A stretch of 64,000 bases of DNA from Clostridia bacterium (GTDB lineage: Bacteria > Bacillota > Clostridia > UMGS1883): the NCBI GenBank assembly GCA_051866635.1, contig JBJDXJ010000038.1:126051-190050 (forward strand). The letters are read 5' to 3'. The notes beneath the pieces were generated by a model. That model saw nothing but the letters and a program-made list of their open reading frames with translations, made no database searches and had not been told where the DNA came from. Both the position numbers and the translations under genes were made by a program. Shown here one piece after another: positions 35,495-44,655 of the stretch; the first letter of the stretch is position 1; each line of letters opens with the position of its first letter.

Positions 35495-36355
35495 ATGTCA
35501 AGGGAGTTTAATACTTGGTTATCCGAATTTCGTGACAGTATCGCAGATTACGGATATTATATAGATTTTGAAAAGGTACATAGAAATGTCGGAAATATAA
35601 AGGTTGAGCTTAATATTCTGAACTCACTTATTGGTTCTGACAATATTGAAGATGATTTTGAAAATTTAATTAAAAAATATCCCGAAGTGTTAAAATGTAT
35701 TCCATTGCTTTTGGCTGTACGGGCGAATGAGATATATGCTATTGATGGTGATGGAGCGTTTACATATAATTTTAAGAAAGCTAATCTCGACTCAGAACAG
35801 TATAAGGTGTTTATGCGTAAAACAGGTTTGTTTGATTTAATAGCTAATCATATTGTGAACAATTTGGTTGACTATGCTACGGGCGTTGAAACAGGACTTG
35901 ATTCTAATGGTCGCAAAAATCGAGGTGGACATTTAATGGAAAACTTGGTTGAAAGTTTTATTAAAAAAGCGGGATTTGTAAAAGATGAAACATACTTTAA
36001 GGAAATGTATATTCATCAGATTACCGAGAAGTGGGGCATTGATTTATCTGCAATTTCAAATCAAGGCAAAATGGAAAAACGCTTTGATTATGTAGTTAAG
36101 ACACCAAATATGATTTACGGTATTGAAACTAATTTTTACGGCAGCGGCGGCTCAAAACTCAATGAAACTGCTCGCAGCTATAAAACACTTGCTCTTGAAA
36201 CCGATACAATAGACGGATTTACTTTTATTTGGTTTACGGACGGCAAAGGTTGGACAAATGCAAGGCACAACCTTGAAGAAACATTTGATGTTATGGAACA
36301 CATTTATAATATTAATGATATGGAAAACGAGATAATTCAAGAGGTTTTTAAATAA
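35495..36355 (+). CDS. DpnII/MboI-family type II restriction endonuclease (GATC expected)
   Basis: About 286 aa. It looks collinear with R.DpnII as I recall it (NILNSLIGSDNIEDDF, GRKNRGGHLMEN, NFYGSGGSKLNETARSYK, YNINDME). AGGAGGAG lies 6 nt upstream of ATG 35495. Confidence 0.8.
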   Translation: MSREFNTWLSEFRDSIADYGYYIDFEKVHRNVGNIKVELNILNSLIGSDNIEDDFENLIKKYPEVLKCIPLLLAVRANEIYAIDGDGAFTYNFKKANLDSEQYKVFMRKTGLFDLIANHIVNNLVDYATGVETGLDSNGRKNRGGHLMENLVESFIKKAGFVKDETYFKEMYIHQITEKWGIDLSAISNQGKMEKRFDYVVKTPNMIYGIETNFYGSGGSKLNETARSYKTLALETDTIDGFTFIWFTDGKGWTNARHNLEETFDVMEHIYNINDMENEIIQEVFK

Positions 36356-37104
36356 TGGCAGAGAAAAAAATTAAAAAATGGGAGCCTGAAGATTTTGAGC
36401 TTGAAATGACTACGCATTGGTCATTTCCAAAGCGTGGCGATTGGGCAACTCACGATGCTAAATGGCGTGGCAATTGGTCTCCATACATACCAAGAAATAT
36501 TATATTAAGATATTCTCAAGAGGGAGATTTAGTTCTTGACCAATTTGCCGGGGGTGGTACTACTCTTGTTGAAGCAAAACTTTTGAATCGAGACATAATT
36601 GGTGTAGATATAAATGATGTTGCACTTGAACGCTGCAGAGAAAAAACAACATTTGATTATGAACCTGCAAAAGGTAAAGTGTATATCAAAAAAGGCGATG
36701 CAAGAAATCTTGATTTTGTACCCGATGATAGTATTGACTTGATATGCACCCATCCACCTTATGCAGATATTATTAAGTATAGCGATGGCATAGAGGAAGA
36801 TTTATCTCAATTAAAAGTTAAAGACTTTCTTGAAGAAATGAAAAAGGTTGCAACAGAGAGTTATCGTGTGCTTAAAAAGGACAGGTTTTGTGCTGTTCTT
36901 ATGGGCGATACAAGGCAAAAAGGATGTATGATACCGATGTCGTTTGAGGTTATGAAAATTTTTCAAGACGCAGGATTTAGACTTAAAGAACTTATAATAA
37001 AAGAACAGCATAATTGCAGGGCAACAGGATATTGGAAAACAAATAGTGTGAAATATAATTTTTTGCTGATTGCACACGAGTATTTGTTTGTATTTAGAAA
37101 GTAA
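36355..37104 (+). CDS. Amino-DNA methyltransferase with atypical motif order and an HPPY catalytic tetrad
   Basis: 249 aa. Motif I (GDLVLDQFAGGGTTLVEA) precedes motif IV (DLICTHPPYADII). This is not the beta-class order of DpnA/M.MboIC. Confidence 0.7.
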   Translation: MAEKKIKKWEPEDFELEMTTHWSFPKRGDWATHDAKWRGNWSPYIPRNIILRYSQEGDLVLDQFAGGGTTLVEAKLLNRDIIGVDINDVALERCREKTTFDYEPAKGKVYIKKGDARNLDFVPDDSIDLICTHPPYADIIKYSDGIEEDLSQLKVKDFLEEMKKVATESYRVLKKDRFCAVLMGDTRQKGCMIPMSFEVMKIFQDAGFRLKELIIKEQHNCRATGYWKTNSVKYNFLLIAHEYLFVFRK

Positions 37105-37116
37105 GGAGGATTTTGA

Positions 37117-38103
37117 ATGGGAGCAACAGAAATTGTTCAAGCATTAGTGTCTCCAACAGAAAAATTAATAGATGCTGTATCAGGAGCTATAGGGAAAGCA
37201 TATGAACCTCGCCATGTCAGAAAAATGGCGGAAGCAAAATCTTATGAACTAAAATTAATTGCAGATACAGTTCGTAATAATAGCGATGTACCAATAGTAT
37301 ACGATTCAACTGGTGTTGTTATTGACACAAGCAATTATGAGGAAATTGCAAAAAGAGCTTCATGTCGCTTGGCATTTCAAGAAATTACAAAGCAGCAAAA
37401 TATTGAATCAATTGCCGACAAAGCTTATGAAGAACTAGAAAATTCTGATTCTGTAAGCAATGTACCCGTGAGTCAAGATTGGATGTCTCGTTTCTTTAAC
37501 TCAGTCGAAGATATTAGTGACGATAAGATGCAAGAAGTTTGGGCACATATTTTAGCGAGTGAAATCAAGACACCTAATACATATTCATATCGAACTATTG
37601 ACAAACTTAAGAATATGACTCGAAATGAAGCAGAATTATTTCAAAGAGTTGCGGGACTTTCAATGCGAGGCGGTAGTGTATATTTCATACTTTCCGATAA
37701 AGAACTTCTTAATAGTTATGGTGTTTACTTCAGTGAGCTTCTTTCGCTTGAAGAGTGCGGTCTAATCTCTACACAAAGTTTGACTTTTAAGATTGAAGCA
37801 TCAGAAAAACAACCAGGACATTTAATGACTGATAAATATATAGGTTTTATTCGTGGCCGAGAAACAGATAAGATACAAGAATTTAAGTTAAATATATATG
37901 TGTTTACAGAGAGTGGTAAACAGCTAATTAATGCAATACACCCACAAACGGACGATAAGTATTTTATTGACTGCATGCAAAAAATTCACCAAGAGCACAG
38001 TAGTTTCTCTGTTGCAGTTCACAGAATCAATTATATTACTGACGATGGTAGAATAAATTATAATGATGTCGATATTCTTTCTACAATAAATAATGTTGGT
38101 TAA
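37117..38103 (+). CDS. DUF2806-like protein
   Basis: 328 aa. KLIDAVSGAIGKAYEP..RKMAEAK and DWMSRFFNSVEDISDDKMQEVWAHILASEI..YSYRTIDKLKNMTRNEAELFQRV match my memory of the DUF2806 signature. AAGGAGGA lies 7 nt upstream, and the gene follows the methylase by 12 nt. Confidence 0.55.
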   Translation: MGATEIVQALVSPTEKLIDAVSGAIGKAYEPRHVRKMAEAKSYELKLIADTVRNNSDVPIVYDSTGVVIDTSNYEEIAKRASCRLAFQEITKQQNIESIADKAYEELENSDSVSNVPVSQDWMSRFFNSVEDISDDKMQEVWAHILASEIKTPNTYSYRTIDKLKNMTRNEAELFQRVAGLSMRGGSVYFILSDKELLNSYGVYFSELLSLEECGLISTQSLTFKIEASEKQPGHLMTDKYIGFIRGRETDKIQEFKLNIYVFTESGKQLINAIHPQTDDKYFIDCMQKIHQEHSSFSVAVHRINYITDDGRINYNDVDILSTINNVG

Positions 38104-38304: not shown

Positions 38305-38467
38305 AAGAGGCTGTAAAATGTCTCTTAGTAAATAAGTTAAGACCATTTGGGACAGTCCCCCTTATGGCAAATTGGGCGACAATTTGCCAAAGAAACCTTG
38401 CGAGGTTTTGTTGGGACAGTCCCGAAATGGTCTTTTTGTTATCTCAGTGTGGACTTTTTTTACAGCC
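38305..38467 (+). repeat. Structured repeat of about 165 nt, copy 1 (MITE-like or ncRNA)
   Basis: Near-identical to 53214-53378, with 2 mismatches over the roughly 135-nt core. It has terminal inverted repeats (ggctgtaaaa...ttttacagcc) and an internal 15-bp stem (aagaccatttgggac / gtcccgaaatggtctt). Two hairpins are present (ggcaaattg/caatttgcc and aaacct/aggttt), and the motif tgggacagtccc occurs twice. Confidence 0.85.
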
Positions 38468-38622: not shown

Positions 38623-38651
38623 TTGACAAGATAAAAAATTGGTGCTACAAT
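38623..38651 (+). promoter_or_regulatory. Consensus promoter (TTGACA, 17-nt spacer, TGcTACAAT) driving the Met/Cys leader and metQNI
   Basis: TTGACA lies at 38623-38628, followed by a 17-nt spacer. The extended -10 is TGC-TACAAT at 38643-38651. Confidence 0.65.
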
Positions 38652-38699
38652 ACAACCAATCTAAACAGTAGGTAAATAATAAGAAAGGGGAGAGCGTGC

Positions 38700-38840
38700 A
38701 TGACAAGATTTTATAGAAACGGCACAATGATAATGATGTGTATGTGTATCTGTATGTGTTCTTGGTGTATGCATATGGCTTTTTTGTATATTTATACGAT
38801 ATGTTCTCCCTTTAGGATAAAACATTGTGTCACATTGTAA
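38700..38840 (+). CDS. 46-codon Met/Cys-rich leader peptide ORF (MTRFYRNGTMIMMCMCICMCSWCMHMAFLYIYTICSPFRIKHCVTL)
   Basis: I translated this by hand; it is not in the ORF track because it is under 60 aa. AAAGGGGAG lies 7 nt upstream of the ATG. The peptide has 8 Met and 7 Cys, and the core MIMMCMCICMCSWCMHM has 7 Met and 5 Cys in 17 residues. Confidence 0.5.
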   Translation: MTRFYRNGTMIMMCMCICMCSWCMHMAFLYIYTICSPFRIKHCVTL

Positions 38841-38860
38841 AAATGTGGAATAACGCTTTT

Positions 38861-38900
38861 AAACCGGGAAACTTATCGAAAGTTTTCCGGTTTATTATAT
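38861..38900 (+). terminator. Intrinsic terminator (candidate attenuator) between the leader ORF and metQ
   Basis: aaaccgggaaact-tatcgaa-agttttccggttt forms a stem of about 10 bp with one G-U pair, followed by the U-rich tract tttattatatt. Confidence 0.6.
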
Positions 38901-39030
38901 TAAGAGGTGAAAGGCATGAAATTGTATTTTGAAAAGCTCGTCAGAGCAAATTACAGGTTCGGGCGAATGTGACAGTAATATTTTAAGGAAAAAATATTAT
39001 AAATTTATAAATTAAAGGAGATTTACTGTC

Positions 39031-39885
39031 ATGAAAAAAATAACATCAACTATACTTAAATTATTACTTACACTTGCCATTGCAATTTCCTTTGCAGGTT
39101 GCGGAAAAAATTCAGACAAAATTACAATTGCAGTACCAAACGACACAACAAACGAAGCGAGAGCGTTGCTCCTTCTGGAGGATTTGGGCTACATAAAGCT
39201 TAAAGAAGGCGCCACTATTACAGCTACAATTCTTGATGTGGAAGAAAATCCCTATAACATAAACTTTAAAGAAGTAGAGGCCGCACAGCTTCCAAATACA
39301 CTTAAGGATGTTGACTATGCCGTAATAAATTCAAACTATGCCATTGAAGCAGGACTTAATCCCACGAAAGATGCTCTTGGTATTGAAGGTTCATCATCAT
39401 CTTACAGCAATATCCTTGCTGTAAAACAGGGAAACGAAAACACCGATATTGTGAAAGCTCTTGTTGCGGCTCTTGAAAGTGAAGACGTAACAAATTTCAT
39501 TAGAAATGAATATGATGGTGCAGTGGTATCTGTAGTTGATAATCCCACTGACGGTTATGACACATCTGTAGACTATGATTTATTGGCAGGAAAAACAGTT
39601 AAGGTTGCCGCATCGCCTACACCTCATGCGGAAATATTGTCAGTTGTGAAGAACATTCTGGCAAAGAAAGAAATTAATCTTGAAATTATCGAATTCACCG
39701 ACTATGTTCAGCCCAACAACGTGGTAGAAAGCGGCGAGGTTGACGCAAATTACTTCCAGCATGTGCCGTATCTTGATGATTTTAATAAGGAAAACGGAAC
39801 CCATATTGTATCTGTGGCGGCTATCCATGTGGAGCCTATCGGAATTTATGGGGGAAAACAAAAAGCCCTCGATGAAATAAAATAA
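39031..39885 (+). CDS. metQ: Methionine ABC transporter substrate-binding lipoprotein (NlpA/MetQ family)
   Basis: 284 aa with lipobox FAGCG. MetQ-like motifs: NDTTNEARALLLLE and NYFQHVPYL. Confidence 0.88.
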   Translation: MKKITSTILKLLLTLAIAISFAGCGKNSDKITIAVPNDTTNEARALLLLEDLGYIKLKEGATITATILDVEENPYNINFKEVEAAQLPNTLKDVDYAVINSNYAIEAGLNPTKDALGIEGSSSSYSNILAVKQGNENTDIVKALVAALESEDVTNFIRNEYDGAVVSVVDNPTDGYDTSVDYDLLAGKTVKVAASPTPHAEILSVVKNILAKKEINLEIIEFTDYVQPNNVVESGEVDANYFQHVPYLDDFNKENGTHIVSVAAIHVEPIGIYGGKQKALDEIK

Positions 39886-39899
39886 TACCGGAGATAAGT

Positions 39900-40913
39900 A
39901 TGATTGAAATAAAAAATGTATCCAAAACTTTTAACACCGCAGAAGGAAAGGTTGAGGCTTTAAAAAATGTGTCTCTGACCATTCCCGACGGAGATATCTT
40001 TGGAATTATAGGCATGAGTGGAGCCGGGAAAAGCACCCTTGTGCGGTGTATAAATATGCTGGAGCGACCGACTGAAGGCAGCTGTATAATAGACGGATGC
40101 GACATAGGGAAGCTGAATGAAAAAGAGCTTAGAAATGTTCGCCGCGAAATTACAATGATATTTCAGGGATTCAATCTTTTAATGCAGAAAAACTGTCTTA
40201 AAAATGTGTGCTTTCCCTTGGAATTGGCAGGTGTAAAAAAAGCAGAAGCCAAAAAGAGGGCACTTGAACTTTTGGAAATTGTAGGTCTTAGCGATAAAGC
40301 CAAGGCGTACCCCTCCGAGCTTTCAGGCGGTCAACAGCAGAGAGTTGCCATTGCACGTGCTCTTGCCACAAACCCAAAGGTTTTACTTTGTGATGAAGCT
40401 ACCAGTGCACTTGACCCTCAAACCACAAATTCAATTCTGGATTTAATCCGCAGTATTAACCAAAAGCTTGGTATTACGGTAATTATTATAACCCACCAGA
40501 TGAGCGTTGTGGAAAATATATGTAAGCATGTGGCTATTTTAGACGGGGGATGTGTTGTGGAGCAAGGTGAGGTTACAGAGGTTTTTACACACCCCAAATC
40601 AAAGGCGGCACAAAGTCTTGTTTTCCCTGAGGGAGATATAAATTCCACTTTGGTGAAAAATCCGGGCGAAAGGTTTATCCGTGTTGTTTTTAGCGGAACT
40701 GATGCAACCGGGACACCGCTTATTGCCCATATGGCAACAAAAAAAGGCATAGAGGCAAATATTGCTTATGCTTCAACAAAAAGCATTAACGGAAAGGCTT
40801 ACGGGTCTATGCTGTTGGGCATTTCGGGAGATGACAGCAAGGTAAATGAGGCGATTGATTATTTAACCAAAGCTTCCGGAGTTATTGCAGAGGAGGTGCA
40901 AAAGGATGAATAA
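39900..40913 (+). CDS. metN: Methionine ABC transporter ATP-binding protein
   Basis: 337 aa. Walker A GMSGAGKST, signature LSGGQQQR and an NIL-type C-terminal domain. Confidence 0.9.
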   Translation: MIEIKNVSKTFNTAEGKVEALKNVSLTIPDGDIFGIIGMSGAGKSTLVRCINMLERPTEGSCIIDGCDIGKLNEKELRNVRREITMIFQGFNLLMQKNCLKNVCFPLELAGVKKAEAKKRALELLEIVGLSDKAKAYPSELSGGQQQRVAIARALATNPKVLLCDEATSALDPQTTNSILDLIRSINQKLGITVIIITHQMSVVENICKHVAILDGGCVVEQGEVTEVFTHPKSKAAQSLVFPEGDINSTLVKNPGERFIRVVFSGTDATGTPLIAHMATKKGIEANIAYASTKSINGKAYGSMLLGISGDDSKVNEAIDYLTKASGVIAEEVQKDE

Positions 40914-41619
40914 CGGTATTTTCTCTGCTGAAGTATTGGCAGAAACATGGCAGATTTTAAAGATGCAGTTTCCCCTTGCAATATGGGAGACAGTTTATGT
41001 AACTGTTCTGGCAACTTTATTTGCTGTTATCATTGGGCTTCCCTTGGGCATTTTACTTGTTGTAGGCGAGAAAAAGGGCGTTTTGCCCCTTCCTTCTTGG
41101 ATTATGCAAGCTTTGAATGCTATTATAAACCTCTTAAGGTCTGTTCCGTTTCTAATTTTGATGATTTTGGTTTTTCCCCTTACCAGGCTAATTGTGGGAA
41201 CGGTTGTGGGTACCGTGGCATCTATTGTCCCCCTTGTTATAGCGGCATTTCCATTTGTGGCGAGACTTGCGGAAAGCAGTTTAAGAGAGGTTAACCCCAA
41301 CACCATCGAAATGGCACAAAGCATGGGTGCATCACCGTTACAGATTATTGTAAAAGTAATGATACCTGAGAGTATGCCCTCACTTATATCAAACGGTGCA
41401 ATTGCAATTACCACCATTTTGGGCTACAGTGCAATGAGTGGTATCATAGGCGGCGGTGGACTTGGAAAAATTGCCATAAACTACGGTTATTACAGATATA
41501 AATATCTGATTATGCTCATAGCGGTTGCTTTGCTGATTGTTATTGTACAGATATTCCAGAGCATAGGAACCTCTCTGGCGGCAAAGTCAGATAAGAGACT
41601 GAAAAACAAATCGACATAA
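40906..41619 (+). CDS. metI: Methionine ABC transporter permease
   Basis: The ORF runs 40885..41619. The likely start is ATG 40906, which overlaps the metN stop. MetI-like motifs: RSVPFLILM and EAAQSMGASP-like (EMAQSMGASPLQ). Confidence 0.88.
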   Translation: MNNGIFSAEVLAETWQILKMQFPLAIWETVYVTVLATLFAVIIGLPLGILLVVGEKKGVLPLPSWIMQALNAIINLLRSVPFLILMILVFPLTRLIVGTVVGTVASIVPLVIAAFPFVARLAESSLREVNPNTIEMAQSMGASPLQIIVKVMIPESMPSLISNGAIAITTILGYSAMSGIIGGGGLGKIAINYGYYRYKYLIMLIAVALLIVIVQIFQSIGTSLAAKSDKRLKNKST

Positions 41620-41637: not shown

Positions 41638-42303
41638 ATGCAGCTGAATTTGGATTTTTGCATGAAGTATTTACCCTTGTATATTGACGGGGCAAAATTG
41701 ACTGTGCGGATTGCTTTTTTTGGAATTGCCATAGCTTTGGTTATAGGTATAATTTGTGCCATAGCGAAATATTACCGTGTACCTGCTTTGGAAAAAGTTA
41801 TTTCTGTCTATATTGAGTTAAGCCGCAACACACCCCTTCTGGTTCAGCTGTTCTTTTTATACTTTGGTCTTCCGAAAGCCGGGATTTGTTTAAGTGCGGA
41901 AACCTGTGCCGTGGTGGGGTTGGCATTTTTAGGCGGCAGTTATATGGCAGAGAGTGTAAGAAGCGGATTGGAGTCTGTTGACAAAGTACAGCTTGAATCG
42001 GCACAAAGTCTTGGATTGTCACCTTATCTTACAATGAAAGAAGTAATTCTCCCTCAGGCGTTGGCTGTATCTGTTCCCGGCATATGTGCAAATGTGATTT
42101 TTTTAATTAAGGAAACCTCGGTTGTAAGTGCAATTGCCCTTGCAGACCTTATGTATGTGACAAAAGATTTAATCGGCTTATATTATGAAACAGACGAAGC
42201 TTTAATTATGCTTGTTATTTTTTACCTGATTATTCTTCTGCCTGTTTCGGCTATAGCCTTGCTTTTGGAGAGGAGGTTTAGGTATGCCGGATTTGGGCAT
42301 TAA
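41638..42303 (+). CDS. Polar amino-acid ABC transporter permease (HEQRo family)
   Basis: 221 aa. Motifs: ELSRNTPLLVQLFFLYFGLP and ESAQSLGLS. Confidence 0.85.
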   Translation: MQLNLDFCMKYLPLYIDGAKLTVRIAFFGIAIALVIGIICAIAKYYRVPALEKVISVYIELSRNTPLLVQLFFLYFGLPKAGICLSAETCAVVGLAFLGGSYMAESVRSGLESVDKVQLESAQSLGLSPYLTMKEVILPQALAVSVPGICANVIFLIKETSVVSAIALADLMYVTKDLIGLYYETDEALIMLVIFYLIILLPVSAIALLLERRFRYAGFGH

Positions 42304-42958
42304 TGTAATTTTCATGGGAAATAATTTTTTGAGGTTACTGGGCGGACTTTGGGTAACTGTGAAAATAAGCCTTCTGGCTGTTATTATATCTGTTCCTTTA
42401 GGCATACTTTTTGGAATGTTTATGACACTTAAAAACCCGCTTTGCAAAGCTGTAAGCAGATTTTATCTGGAGTTTATACGCATTATGCCACAACTTGTTT
42501 TACTCTTTATAGCCTATTTTGGTGTTACGAGGGCATTTGGAATAAACCTTTCAGCAGAATTCAGTGCAATTTTAGTGTTTACCCTTTGGGGAACGGCTGA
42601 AATGGGAGATTTGGTACGCGGTGCCCTTATAAGCATACCAAAGCACCAATATGACAGTGCTTTTGCCCTTGGTATGACTTCGGTGCAGACATTTGTATAT
42701 ATAGTTATTCCTCAGACAATAAGGCGTCTTATTCCCCTTACCATTAACCTTACAACAAGAATGATTAAAACAACGAGCCTTGTTGTTTTGATAGGTATAA
42801 CGGAGGTTTTAAAGGTGGGAAAGCAGATTATAGACGCAAATCGTTTTGAATACCCTACAGCGGTATTGTGGGTATACGGCGTGATATTTCTTTTATATTT
42901 TCTTGCCTGTTGGCCCATTTCTGTTCTGGCAAAGAAATTGGAAAAAATCTGGGGGTGA
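42284..42958 (+). CDS. Polar amino-acid ABC transporter permease, second subunit
   Basis: 224 aa. Motifs: EFIRIMPQLVLLF and DSAFALGMT. Confidence 0.85.
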   Translation: MPDLGINVIFMGNNFLRLLGGLWVTVKISLLAVIISVPLGILFGMFMTLKNPLCKAVSRFYLEFIRIMPQLVLLFIAYFGVTRAFGINLSAEFSAILVFTLWGTAEMGDLVRGALISIPKHQYDSAFALGMTSVQTFVYIVIPQTIRRLIPLTINLTTRMIKTTSLVVLIGITEVLKVGKQIIDANRFEYPTAVLWVYGVIFLLYFLACWPISVLAKKLEKIWG

Positions 42959-42964
42959 TTGTAG

Positions 42965-43729
42965 GTGGAGAATAAAATTCAGCTTAAAATAACAAACCTT
43001 ATTAAACGCTTTGGTGAAGAAACAGTCCTTGACGGCATTGATTTAACTGTTCATAAAGGTGAAGTTGTGGTTGTTTTAGGCCCGTCGGGCTGTGGCAAAA
43101 GCACACTTTTACGCTGTATAAACGGCTTAGAGAAATTAAGCGAGGGGGAAATCTTTCTGGGCGGTGAAAAGGTTAATGCAGAAAGCAAAGAAATAACAAG
43201 ACTCAGACAAAAAATAGGCATGGTTTTTCAAAGCTACGAGTTATTTCCCCATAAAAATATTATGGATAACATAACATTGGCACCTATAAAGGTCCAGAAA
43301 CGCTCACGTGCAGATGCGGAAAAAGAGGCGGAAATCCTTTTAAAGCGGGTGGGTTTATGGGAAAAGAGAAAAGCCTATCCAAGAGAATTGTCAGGGGGAC
43401 AAAAACAGCGTGCGGCAATTGTAAGGGCACTTTGTATGAACCCTGAGGTTATGCTCTTTGATGAAGTGACAGCCGCCCTTGACCCGGCAATGGTACATGA
43501 GGTTTTAGAGGTTATGATAGAGCTGGCAAAAAAGGGTATGACAATGGTAATTGTAACCCATGAAATGCAGTTTGCAAGGGCCATTGCTGACAGAATTGTT
43601 TTTCTGGAAAACGGAAAAATTGCCGAAGAAGCAGACCCTGAAGAATTTTTTACAAACCCGAAAACAGAGCTTGCAAAGGATTTTCTCTATACCTTTGCAT
43701 ATGAAAACCGCAGAATTAATAAGAATTAA
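42965..43729 (+). CDS. Polar amino-acid ABC transporter ATP-binding protein
   Basis: 254 aa with a GTG start. Walker [10 protein letters not shown], signature LSGGQKQR and Walker [12 protein letters not shown]. Confidence 0.9.
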
Positions 43730-43758
43730 TACTAATCTTAAGAAAGAAGGAATTTTTT

Positions 43759-44616
43759 ATGAAAACGAGAAAGGGTATTATAGGATTAATTGCCTTAGCA
43801 CTGACTGCCATAGTTTTAATATTCACTATTTCAGGGTGCGGAAAAAATGAGAAAAGTGCAGCTTCTTTTCGTTCTGTTGATGAAATTAAAGAAAGCGGAA
43901 AAATTGTAATTGGCGTATTCAGCGATAAAGCACCCTTCGGCTACGTTGATGAAAACGGAAAGTATCAGGGATATGATATTTATTTTGCAGAACGCATTGC
44001 AAAGGATTTGGGAGTTAGGGTTGAATATGTTTCCACAGACCCTGCCAGCCGTGTTGAATATGTGGCAACAGGTAAGGTTGATATCATCCTTGCAAACTTT
44101 ACCGTAACGGAGGAGAGAGCAAAGCAAGTGGATTTTGCCCTTCCTTACATGAAGGTAATGCTTGGTGTCGTTTCTCCTGAGGACAATATTGTCAGAAATG
44201 TAAATGACCTTGTGGGCAAGAAACTTATTGTTGTTAAGGGTACAACGGCTGAAACATATTTTGAAAAAAATCACCCGGAGATAGAGCTTCAGAAATATGA
44301 CGAATATGCAGATGCTTACAACGCACTTCTTGACGGACGAGGAGACGCATTCTCAACAGATAATACAGAGGTGCTTGCGTGGGCACTTTCAAATCCCGGC
44401 TTTACTGTAGGCATTGATGCACTTGGCAACGCCGATACAATTGCACCTGCTGTCCAAAAGGGAAATACAACACTTCTTGAATGGATAAATGCCGAAATTG
44501 AAAGGCTTGGTGAAGAAAATTTCTTCCACGAAGACTATGAAGAAACCTTAAAACCCGTATACGGCGATGCGGCAGACCCCGAAGCTTTGGTTGTAGAAGG
44601 CGGAAATGTAGATTAA
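43759..44616 (+). CDS. Family-3 solute-binding lipoprotein for the amino-acid ABC transporter
   Basis: 285 aa with lipobox ISGCG. SBP_bac_3-like motifs: GVFSDKAPFGYVDENG and DIILANFTVTEER. Confidence 0.85.
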   Translation: MKTRKGIIGLIALALTAIVLIFTISGCGKNEKSAASFRSVDEIKESGKIVIGVFSDKAPFGYVDENGKYQGYDIYFAERIAKDLGVRVEYVSTDPASRVEYVATGKVDIILANFTVTEERAKQVDFALPYMKVMLGVVSPEDNIVRNVNDLVGKKLIVVKGTTAETYFEKNHPEIELQKYDEYADAYNALLDGRGDAFSTDNTEVLAWALSNPGFTVGIDALGNADTIAPAVQKGNTTLLEWINAEIERLGEENFFHEDYEETLKPVYGDAADPEALVVEGGNVD

Positions 44617-44619
44617 AAT

Positions 44620-44655
44620 AAAAGACTCCTGTGCAAAAATTGCACGGGAGTTTTT
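44620..44655 (+). terminator. Rho-independent terminator ending the seven-gene uptake operon
   Basis: aaaagactcctgtgca-aaaat-tgcacgggagttttt. Confidence 0.8.

Follow-up and report, generated by a model that had tools for sequence, protein, structure and literature searches.

A tandem upstream-ORF leader, probably Met/Cys-responsive, before methionine uptake and metY genes of gut Firmicutes

Known leaders and the metQNI locus

Methionine genes of Firmicutes are thought to be under the control of S-box riboswitches, T-boxes or LysR-type regulators, and to our knowledge methionine is among the amino acids for which no leader-peptide attenuator has been described. The locus treated here, at positions 38623-39030 of a 64,000-nucleotide stretch (the window, read on the forward strand) of a Clostridia bacterium of the UMGS1883 lineage (GenBank assembly GCA_051866635.1, contig JBJDXJ010000038.1, positions 126,051 to 190,050), is the 5' leader of a metQNI operon and of the amino-acid ATP-binding cassette (ABC) transporter genes downstream of it. 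It carries two upstream open reading frames (ORFs), a Met/Cys-rich uORF1 and a short uORF2, with an intrinsic terminator between them. Comparison with related genomes shows that the leader is real and recurs widely among gut Firmicutes. It is apparently new to the literature, and would serve sulfur amino-acid genes as a tandem device that senses translation. We regard it as probable that the leader is uORF-based and responsive to methionine and cysteine, and hold the specific output mechanism of uORF2 to be much less certain. A reading of this DNA made from its letters alone (the sequence-only reading) had proposed an attenuator whose leader peptide responds through its Met and Cys codons. The codons, the terminator and the antiterminator segment (region 2, below) conserved among relatives support this proposal, which was incomplete in that it lacked uORF2, the pairing of the uORF1 Shine-Dalgarno sequence with region 2, and a helix at the metQ start site.

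The classical attenuators trpL, hisL, leuL, pheL, thrL and ilvL of Proteobacteria, and the leu/phe leader of Lactococcus, share with uORF1 a leader ORF with a run of cognate codons. In these systems, as predicted for the uORF1 module, pairing of region 1 with 2 plus 3 with 4 means termination, pairing of 2 with 3 means read-through, and the terminator stands before the first structural gene. The uORF1 module differs in that its regulatory codons are those for Met, a single codon that also serves as the start, interleaved with Cys, and in that its region 1 is formed by the Shine-Dalgarno sequence and start of uORF1 itself and not by the regulatory codons. It would, moreover, control an uptake operon and metY in gut Firmicutes, and a second uORF follows it.

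Cysteine-rich upstream ORFs are known from Actinobacteria, as candidate cys leaders (PMC1262725) and as polycysteine leaderless short ORFs in mycobacteria (bioRxiv 10.1101/834739). They resemble uORF1 in that Cys codons of an upstream ORF would tie cysteine supply to sulfur amino-acid genes. However, in Actinobacteria these ORFs either start without a leader or are not followed by a conserved terminator hairpin, and they contain runs of Cys only, whereas uORF1 has a Shine-Dalgarno sequence, mainly Met codons, a terminator with a predicted antiterminator, and a Firmicutes host. Nor is uORF1 leaderless, as it lies ~45 nucleotides (nt) downstream of the -10 element behind a strong Shine-Dalgarno sequence, and Met is interleaved with Cys in its core.

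SAM-I (S-box) riboswitches and Met T-boxes do the same job as that proposed for this leader, namely 5'-leader feedback on methionine uptake and biosynthesis in Firmicutes, but here the sensing would be done by translation of short ORFs and not by an RNA aptamer or by the binding of uncharged tRNA. The remark that S-box and T-box elements are missing from this region is borne out by Rfam: no family reached the gathering score in the whole 64-kb window, and at E<=10 the segment 38200-39150 gave three chance-level matches and nothing meaningful, with no riboswitch or T-box among them. No known riboswitch or Rfam family was found at 16 related leader loci either. A riboswitch would be missing from these met leaders because the translation-based leader takes that role. 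Among the 16 loci in which the first pattern searches had found no leader, one carries a T-box, and L025, L026 and L037 carry Met-rich upstream ORFs. In locus L045 (3728-3977), a T-box leader scoring 104.9 bits sits upstream of metQ at the position of the uORF leader, a replacement of the regulator at an orthologous site.

The arrest-peptide leaders TnaC, SpeFL, SecM/MifM, Erm and Cat are comparable to uORF2 in having a very short ORF, a conserved C-terminal peptide and a fixed critical codon. Conservation of the C-terminus of a short upstream ORF at the amino-acid level, which is used to recognize arrest peptides, is found in uORF2. In contrast to the known arrest peptides, to which it has no sequence similarity, uORF2 presents Met and Cys codons behind a rare CGA, a feature suggestive of the sensing of charged tRNA and not of a drug or free ligand. 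In the open-access literature we found no description of the leader or of the motifs FRFGRM and RFGRMC, and an earlier report elsewhere is possible. The leader would add a third, translation-based solution to the control of these genes, one that is common among uncultured Clostridia of gut and rumen and the organisms related to them, and its sequence offers a marker by which the methionine regulon can be annotated in metagenomes. With its compact conserved peptide and rare codon, uORF2 is also promising for studies of stalling by nascent chain and codon context.

uORF1 and its terminator

The 46 codons of uORF1 (38700..38840, + strand), preceded by the Shine-Dalgarno sequence AAAGGGGAG (38685-38693), encode MTRFYRNGTMIMMCMCICMCSWCMHMAFLYIYTICSPFRIKHCVTL, exactly the peptide that the sequence-only reading had quoted. 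The peptide contains 8 Met and 7 Cys residues, and 12 of the 17 residues of its core (38727-38777) are Met or Cys. This core is built of ATGTGY repeats, because of which a chance ORF was a real possibility. A MetQ-based scan with one genome per species yielded 80 loci from uncultured Clostridia and relatives (identity <=81%), and blastn with the leader gave matches upstream of met genes in many of them. The expectation that short Met/Cys-rich ORFs would recur upstream of metQ orthologues was confirmed, as 43 of the 80 loci have a homologous ORF ahead of metQ and on its coding strand, or 45 with L001 and L007, where the leader is further upstream of metQ and another gene lies between; these homologues carry a GGAG-type Shine-Dalgarno sequence (43-45/80 loci). 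Together with its hairpin, uORF1 recurs before metQ or metY in dozens of genomes of Clostridia, Erysipelotrichaceae and Peptoniphilaceae, and the carriers among the MetQ loci also include Anaerovoracaceae. On this comparison, a low-complexity accident is ruled out.

Position, frame and Met/Cys codons of uORF1 are kept across lineages while the remaining residues drift. The cores read MM-x-MCM-xx-C-x-MCM, MCMCM or are Met-only (MMMRMMSMYMNM; in Erysipelotrichaceae VMMMAMAMDMRMCM), with an MCMCM-type or MMM-type core in all homologues, and in an alignment of 20 sequences the four invariant or nearly invariant columns are all Met. Because solely the Met/Cys codons are kept while other residues vary, the conservation looks like a pattern of regulatory codons and not like that of a folded peptide. 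Neither Pfam nor NCBIfam has a family for the uORF1 or the uORF2 peptide, and a profile search of 5.8 billion proteins returned 34 short proteins, none of them named.

The same comparison bears on the idea that uORF1 is an independent small gene with a promoter and terminator of its own, unrelated to metQ control and encoding either a membrane peptide like those of type I toxins or a metal-binding peptide rich in Met/Cys, an outcome that the sequence-only reading had listed as one that would count against it. The window peptide does have a hydrophobic core with charged flanks, its Shine-Dalgarno sequence is engaged in a long-range helix, a terminator follows, and antisense promoter-like sites, albeit weak (9/12), occur at 38863-38834. 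But most homologues are not hydrophobic (e.g. MAAVFTATYTTGMCMCMRTSCHALFSMRSQF), what is kept is only the Met/Cys codons and the RNA-level region 2, the window has one copy, and the element is always co-oriented with and upstream of metQ, metY or metN. We consider such a gene extremely unlikely, since it does not fit the conservation pattern and the linkage to met genes; the type I toxin-like form of the idea was rejected outright, as hydrophobicity is not kept among homologues and the met-gene linkage is strict.

The hairpin with U-tract that had been read before metQ is present. The intrinsic terminator (38860..38904, + strand; regions 3 and 4) consists of a 15-bp hairpin at 38860-38894, with 5 G-C pairs and present in the minimum-free-energy fold, and the U-rich tail TTATATTAAG. 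A hairpin and U-tract follow uORF1 throughout, and 38 non-identical related leaders with this arrangement formed the set for the attenuator tests. Their hairpin sequences are diverse with the pairing kept (CCGGGAGAC, GAGAGGGGCC, AGGAGAGCUC, GCGGAAAGCA, CGGAAGCC); a column test on a MAFFT alignment finds 0.81 of the cells paired and 3.6 pair types at each position, and many changes are compensatory. An RNAalifold consensus over the entire leader recovered the terminator alone because the spacers do not align, and for this reason the other pairings were tested in each sequence (RNAduplex with shuffle z) and by column against slid controls on the MAFFT alignment.

Region 1 (38684..38702), comprising the Shine-Dalgarno sequence and start codon of uORF1, pairs in the minimum-free-energy fold with region 2 (ACGATATGTTCTCCCTTT, 38796..38813), with an RNAduplex energy of -20.6 kcal/mol and z of -3.0 in the window. 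Region 2 also forms a duplex with 38863-38879, the 5' arm and loop of the terminator (region 3). Among the 38 leaders, region 2 is the best duplex partner of region 1 (median -18.7 kcal/mol) and likewise of region 3 (median -13.0 kcal/mol). Folding had been suggested as a check for mutually exclusive structures, and the 1:2 and 2:3 duplexes do use the same region 2 nucleotides, overlapping by a median of 15 nt, which is also the value in the window. Region 2 would then act either as an anti-Shine-Dalgarno, with region 1, or as an antiterminator, with 38863-38879. The earlier guess that gttctcccttt (38803-38813) is partly complementary to the terminator 5' arm was right because this segment lies inside region 2, and the complementarity is kept in relatives. 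Region 2 starts a median of 13-16.5 nt past the last core codon, a spacing that would roughly match the leading edge of a ribosome stalled there; in the window both of its duplexes begin 18-19 nt past the codon core.

Complementarity of region 2 to the terminator 5' arm and loop extends to relatives with quite different terminators, and the two strands co-vary between lineages, as in CGAUG:CAUCG, in UCAGAUG:CAUUUGA (L050) and UCCAAUG:CAUGGA (L024), in UUUCGA:UCGAAA with GUUCUC:GGGAAC (the Ruminococcus sp. CAG:488 group), and in AUACG:CGUAU with UUUCCG:CGGAAG (L077 and L078). In the column test, 0.74-0.78 of the antiterminator cells are paired versus 0.29-0.65 in the slid controls. A conserved leader ORF with a ribosome-binding site, a cluster of regulatory codons, an intrinsic terminator and an exclusive antiterminator, by which attenuators are recognized, are all found in this module, and we regard its four-region attenuator architecture as well supported, if not proven. 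A small hairpin spans the uORF1 stop codon in the minimum-free-energy fold (38823..38853, + strand, CACAU/AUGUG), and relatives have GCCGC/GCGG at this site; within the attenuator, the hairpin may serve for pausing or timing.

uORF2, its regulon and its possible output

In blastn, conservation of the leader is highest at 38941-38971, a stretch within uORF2 (38916..38972, + strand), which encodes the 18 codons of MKLYFEKLVRANYRFGRM and then a stop. Its Shine-Dalgarno sequence, AAGAGGTG (38902..38909), follows directly upon the U-tract, as it does in relatives. The core L-[VL]-R-x-N-[FY]-R-F-G-R-M is shared by the window and 22 genome loci, which differ in their third codon positions, with synonymous changes at 9 of the 11 core codons (Leu CTT/CTC/CTG/TTA, Val GTC/GTA/GTT/GTG, Arg AGA/CGG/CGT/CGA, Gly GGA/GGG/GGT), and the pattern thus indicates selection on the uORF2 peptide. 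The Arg codon before the Met departs from this freedom and is CGA in 23/23 sequences (CGA and Met codons at 38964-38969 in the window), whereas CGA makes up 6.2% of Arg codons in the long ORFs of the window and 8.4% in relatives.

A degenerate DNA pattern for the uORF2 core was also run against metagenomes and gave at least 120 loci, where every match listed falls inside a uORF2-type ORF. Peptides were compared among 78 distinct variants from the matches listed. Met is at codon 18 in 70 of these 78; Arg10 is invariant and conservation is strong at positions 5 (F), 8 (L) and 9, although the search pattern had left all four free. The Met is followed directly by a stop in 26/78 variants of that set and otherwise by tails such as CRC, CRCCI, CDRCC or YCCSKMCCCC, with Cys making up 26% of tail residues 2-8. 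Distant variants (NIKNQ-R-M, ANYHGK-R-MCR) retain the CGA-ATG-TG string.

These data also weigh on a reading in which the elements act only as RNA or DNA, as a riboswitch of no known family or a protein site, with the ORFs as by-products and the main control exerted by a transcription factor at CCTA...TAGG palindromes. Most related promoters do have such palindromes, on either side of the -35 element and behind the -10 element, and conservation of the nucleotides themselves is seen in the 8-nt string CGAAUGUG and in the region 2 string. On the other hand, the synonymous variation at 9 of 11 core codons runs counter to this view, as does the fact that uORF1 and uORF2 both conserve their start codon, Shine-Dalgarno sequence, frame and length. 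It also has to contend with uORF2 copies that lie inside operons without a promoter, with a window promoter that has no -35 palindrome, and with the lack of an Rfam match. We rate it very unlikely, though not to the degree of the small-gene idea.

Strict C-terminal conservation and fixed length are hallmarks of the arrest peptides TnaC, SpeFL and SecM. It is conceivable that uORF2 is a ligand-sensing arrest peptide of the TnaC/SpeFL type, in which L-x-R-x-N-F/Y-R-F-G-R and free methionine or S-adenosylmethionine in the exit tunnel stall the ribosome at the Met or stop codon and change downstream expression, uORF1 being an ordinary attenuator. The last ~10 residues of uORF2 are strictly conserved, its length is fixed at 18 codons, often with the stop directly after Met, and no terminator follows it (2/107 leaders). 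Yet the tails are Cys-rich (26%) and of variable length, and because of the Cys-rich tails sensing of charged tRNA is favoured over that of a free ligand. A ligand-induced stall would, in addition, need to repress the gene, and no conserved route for this was found. Overall, we consider a pure ligand sensor of this type unlikely, although a better candidate than either alternative above. CGA is read via inosine:adenosine wobble and is poorly decoded, and in yeast it interferes with the reading of the codon after it; this would fit a nascent peptide and a CGA in the ribosomal P-site that together sensitise the decoding of AUG and UGY.

The genes downstream of uORF2 point the same way as the codons, toward sulfur amino acids. 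Among the matches listed, 119 metagenome loci have a long ORF downstream, the first of which is an O-acetylhomoserine sulfhydrylase-like gene (metY) in 85, metQ in 22, metN in 3, a cysK-like gene in 1, and other, unclustered ORF calls in 8. In L001, the complete two-ORF leader precedes a metY-like gene, and metQ lies 1.9 kb further. The two modules are, on the arrangement of the loci, separable: L002 has uORF1 and the terminator without uORF2, while uORF2 stands without uORF1 in L003, L034, L051, L060 and most metY leaders, and a terminator-like hairpin just before uORF2, marking the uORF1 module, is found in 29/107 leaders. In metNI-metQ operons, uORF2 occurs between metI and metQ (L093, L108, L110, L122, L136, L155, L192, L167, L182), starting ~14 nt after the metI stop without a promoter. 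Inside operons, uORF2 must therefore act after transcription initiation, and from this position it can regulate the binding-protein gene apart from the permease and ATPase genes. Three hybrid leaders (L051 3847-3960, L060 417-494, L037 2487-2555), with neither uORF1 nor a terminator, run from a uORF2-type peptide straight into a Met/Cys-rich tail (RFGRMYCCSKMCCCC, RFGRMYCCC, GRRMCMCCCS), as if the uORF1 and uORF2 modules had been fused.

We tentatively propose, at somewhat less than even odds, that uORF2 represents a new class of nascent-peptide Met/Cys sensor. In this class, the 17-residue peptide M-x3-F-x2-L-[VL]-R-x-N-[FY]-R-F-G-R in the exit tunnel and the invariant P-site CGA would make AUG (and UGY) hypersensitive to charged tRNA or to free Met or S-adenosylmethionine, and the resulting stall would switch on metY, metQ, metN and cysK-like genes across gut Firmicutes, with uORF2 acting alone, within operons or in tandem with the Met/Cys terminator.

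How such a stall would reach the downstream gene can be suggested for the window. A 10-bp helix joins GTGACAGTAA (38969..38978), which starts at the last uORF2 codons, to TTACTGTCAT (39023-39032), which enters the metQ ATG within the metQ ribosome-binding site (39014..39032; Shine-Dalgarno AAAGGAG at 39014-39020). The helix is found in the minimum-free-energy and centroid folds (z -3.1), and its duplex energy is -14.9 kcal/mol (z -3.75). When 30 nt around the uORF2 Met codon are forced unpaired, the unpaired probability of the metQ ribosome-binding site rises from 0.26 to 0.54. Across 102 leaders the same block raises the mean probability at the downstream ribosome-binding site from 0.44 to 0.53, with a gain above 0.2 in 26/102, the window included; a control block placed where uORF2 starts gives such a gain in 1/102. 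It is plausible that uORF2 unmasks the ribosome-binding site in the window, where a ribosome at the end of uORF2 would open the downstream site much as in ermC-type translational attenuation; the models indicate that this is not the general route. Two other outputs were tried and set aside. A second intrinsic-terminator attenuator was rejected, since a hairpin with a T-run follows uORF2 in 2/107 leaders, and a Rho-loading spacer, C-rich and G-poor, is not general, as A predominates in the spacers (45% A) and C and G are roughly balanced. The spacers are also weakly structured. Protection of the mRNA by a stalled ribosome and translation re-initiation are possible routes as well.

Put together, the leader would work as follows. 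The strong promoter would drive uORF1, 12 of whose 17 core codons are Met or Cys, and when Met-tRNA or Cys-tRNA is scarce the ribosome would stall in this core. Region 2 would then be free to pair with the terminator 5' arm and loop (38863-38879), giving read-through. With good supply, the ribosome would pass region 2 to the stop, the hairpin 38860-38894 would form and transcription would end; if uORF1 is not translated at all, region 2 would pair with region 1 at the Shine-Dalgarno sequence and start, and the terminator would form again. Read-through RNA would carry uORF2, with its conserved nascent peptide and the rare CGA directly before Met, often followed by Cys codons. Peptide and CGA together are predicted to make the ribosome respond unusually strongly to charged tRNA when it reads the Met codon, and a ribosome held at the end of uORF2 would melt the helix 38969-38978/39023-39032 and allow metQ to be translated.

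Several observations weigh against this scheme. The stalling, the response to Met and Cys and the effect of uORF2 on the downstream gene are all inferred from sequence and models. The related leaders share phylogeny, and the counts given above are not independent. The shuffle z falls below -2 in 45% (1:2) and 39% (2:3) of leaders, which is moderate, and the U-tract of the window is interrupted (TTATATT). A ribosome at the stop would leave region 2 uncovered in the window and some relatives, where 29 nt separate the end of region 2 from the end of the stop codon, and timing or the 1:2 pairing must stand in for such cover. A helix hiding the ribosome-binding site after uORF2 is not supported as a general feature across leaders (mean z -0.57), and uORF2 consequently needs another output route in most of them. 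Finally, the CCTA...TAGG palindromes suggest an additional regulator besides the uORFs.

Promoter, operon and neighbouring sequences

The promoter that had been read upstream of uORF1 stands: a sigma-70-type TTGACA, a 17-nt spacer and TG-n-TACAAT (38623..38651, + strand), with 11/12 consensus positions plus TG. It is the joint best (11/12) between 38000 and 45000 and the sole one there with TG, and equivalent strong promoters lie 5' of the leader in 80 related loci. Directly after its -10 element is the palindrome CCAATCTA-aacag-TAGGTAA (38656..38675, + strand), with the same motif at the same place in most related leaders; it would be a hairpin at the 5' end of the transcript, or else one half of an operator with the conserved CCTA...TAGG motif. 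Around the -35 element most related leaders (e.g. L012, L083, L094) have aCCTA-TTGACA-agg-TAGGTAa, and their -10 element is directly followed by CCAACCTA-N5-9-TAGGTAA; the window keeps the second palindrome only. In those leaders the pair could be operators for a transcription factor or, again, a 5'-terminal hairpin.

Downstream, the seven-gene layout is as first described, all on the + strand: metQ (39031-39885, an NlpA lipoprotein), metN (39900-40913, ABC_tran plus NIL domain) and metI (BPD_transp_1, ending at 41619), then, beginning 18 nt after metI, a polar amino-acid ABC transporter (41638..44655) with two permeases, an ATPase and a family-3 binding protein, and at the operon end a terminator, a hairpin with a T-run, at 44620-44655. 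The leader element itself is present as a single copy in the window.

Upstream of the leader, a 111-nt three-way RNA structure (38331-38441, + strand) followed by UUUUUG has a long closing stem (AAGACCAUUUGGGAC / GUCCCGAAAUGGUCUU) around two inner hairpins, with a minimum free energy of -50.8 kcal/mol and z of -6.26. It has no Rfam match; it may terminate transcription of the genes upstream, as a complex terminator, or be a small RNA of no known family. Also just upstream of the met leader, a gene for an N6/N4 DNA methylase (36355-37104) is directly followed by a DUF2806 gene (37117-38103, + strand), and this pair (36355-38103) may be a small mobile or defence islet.

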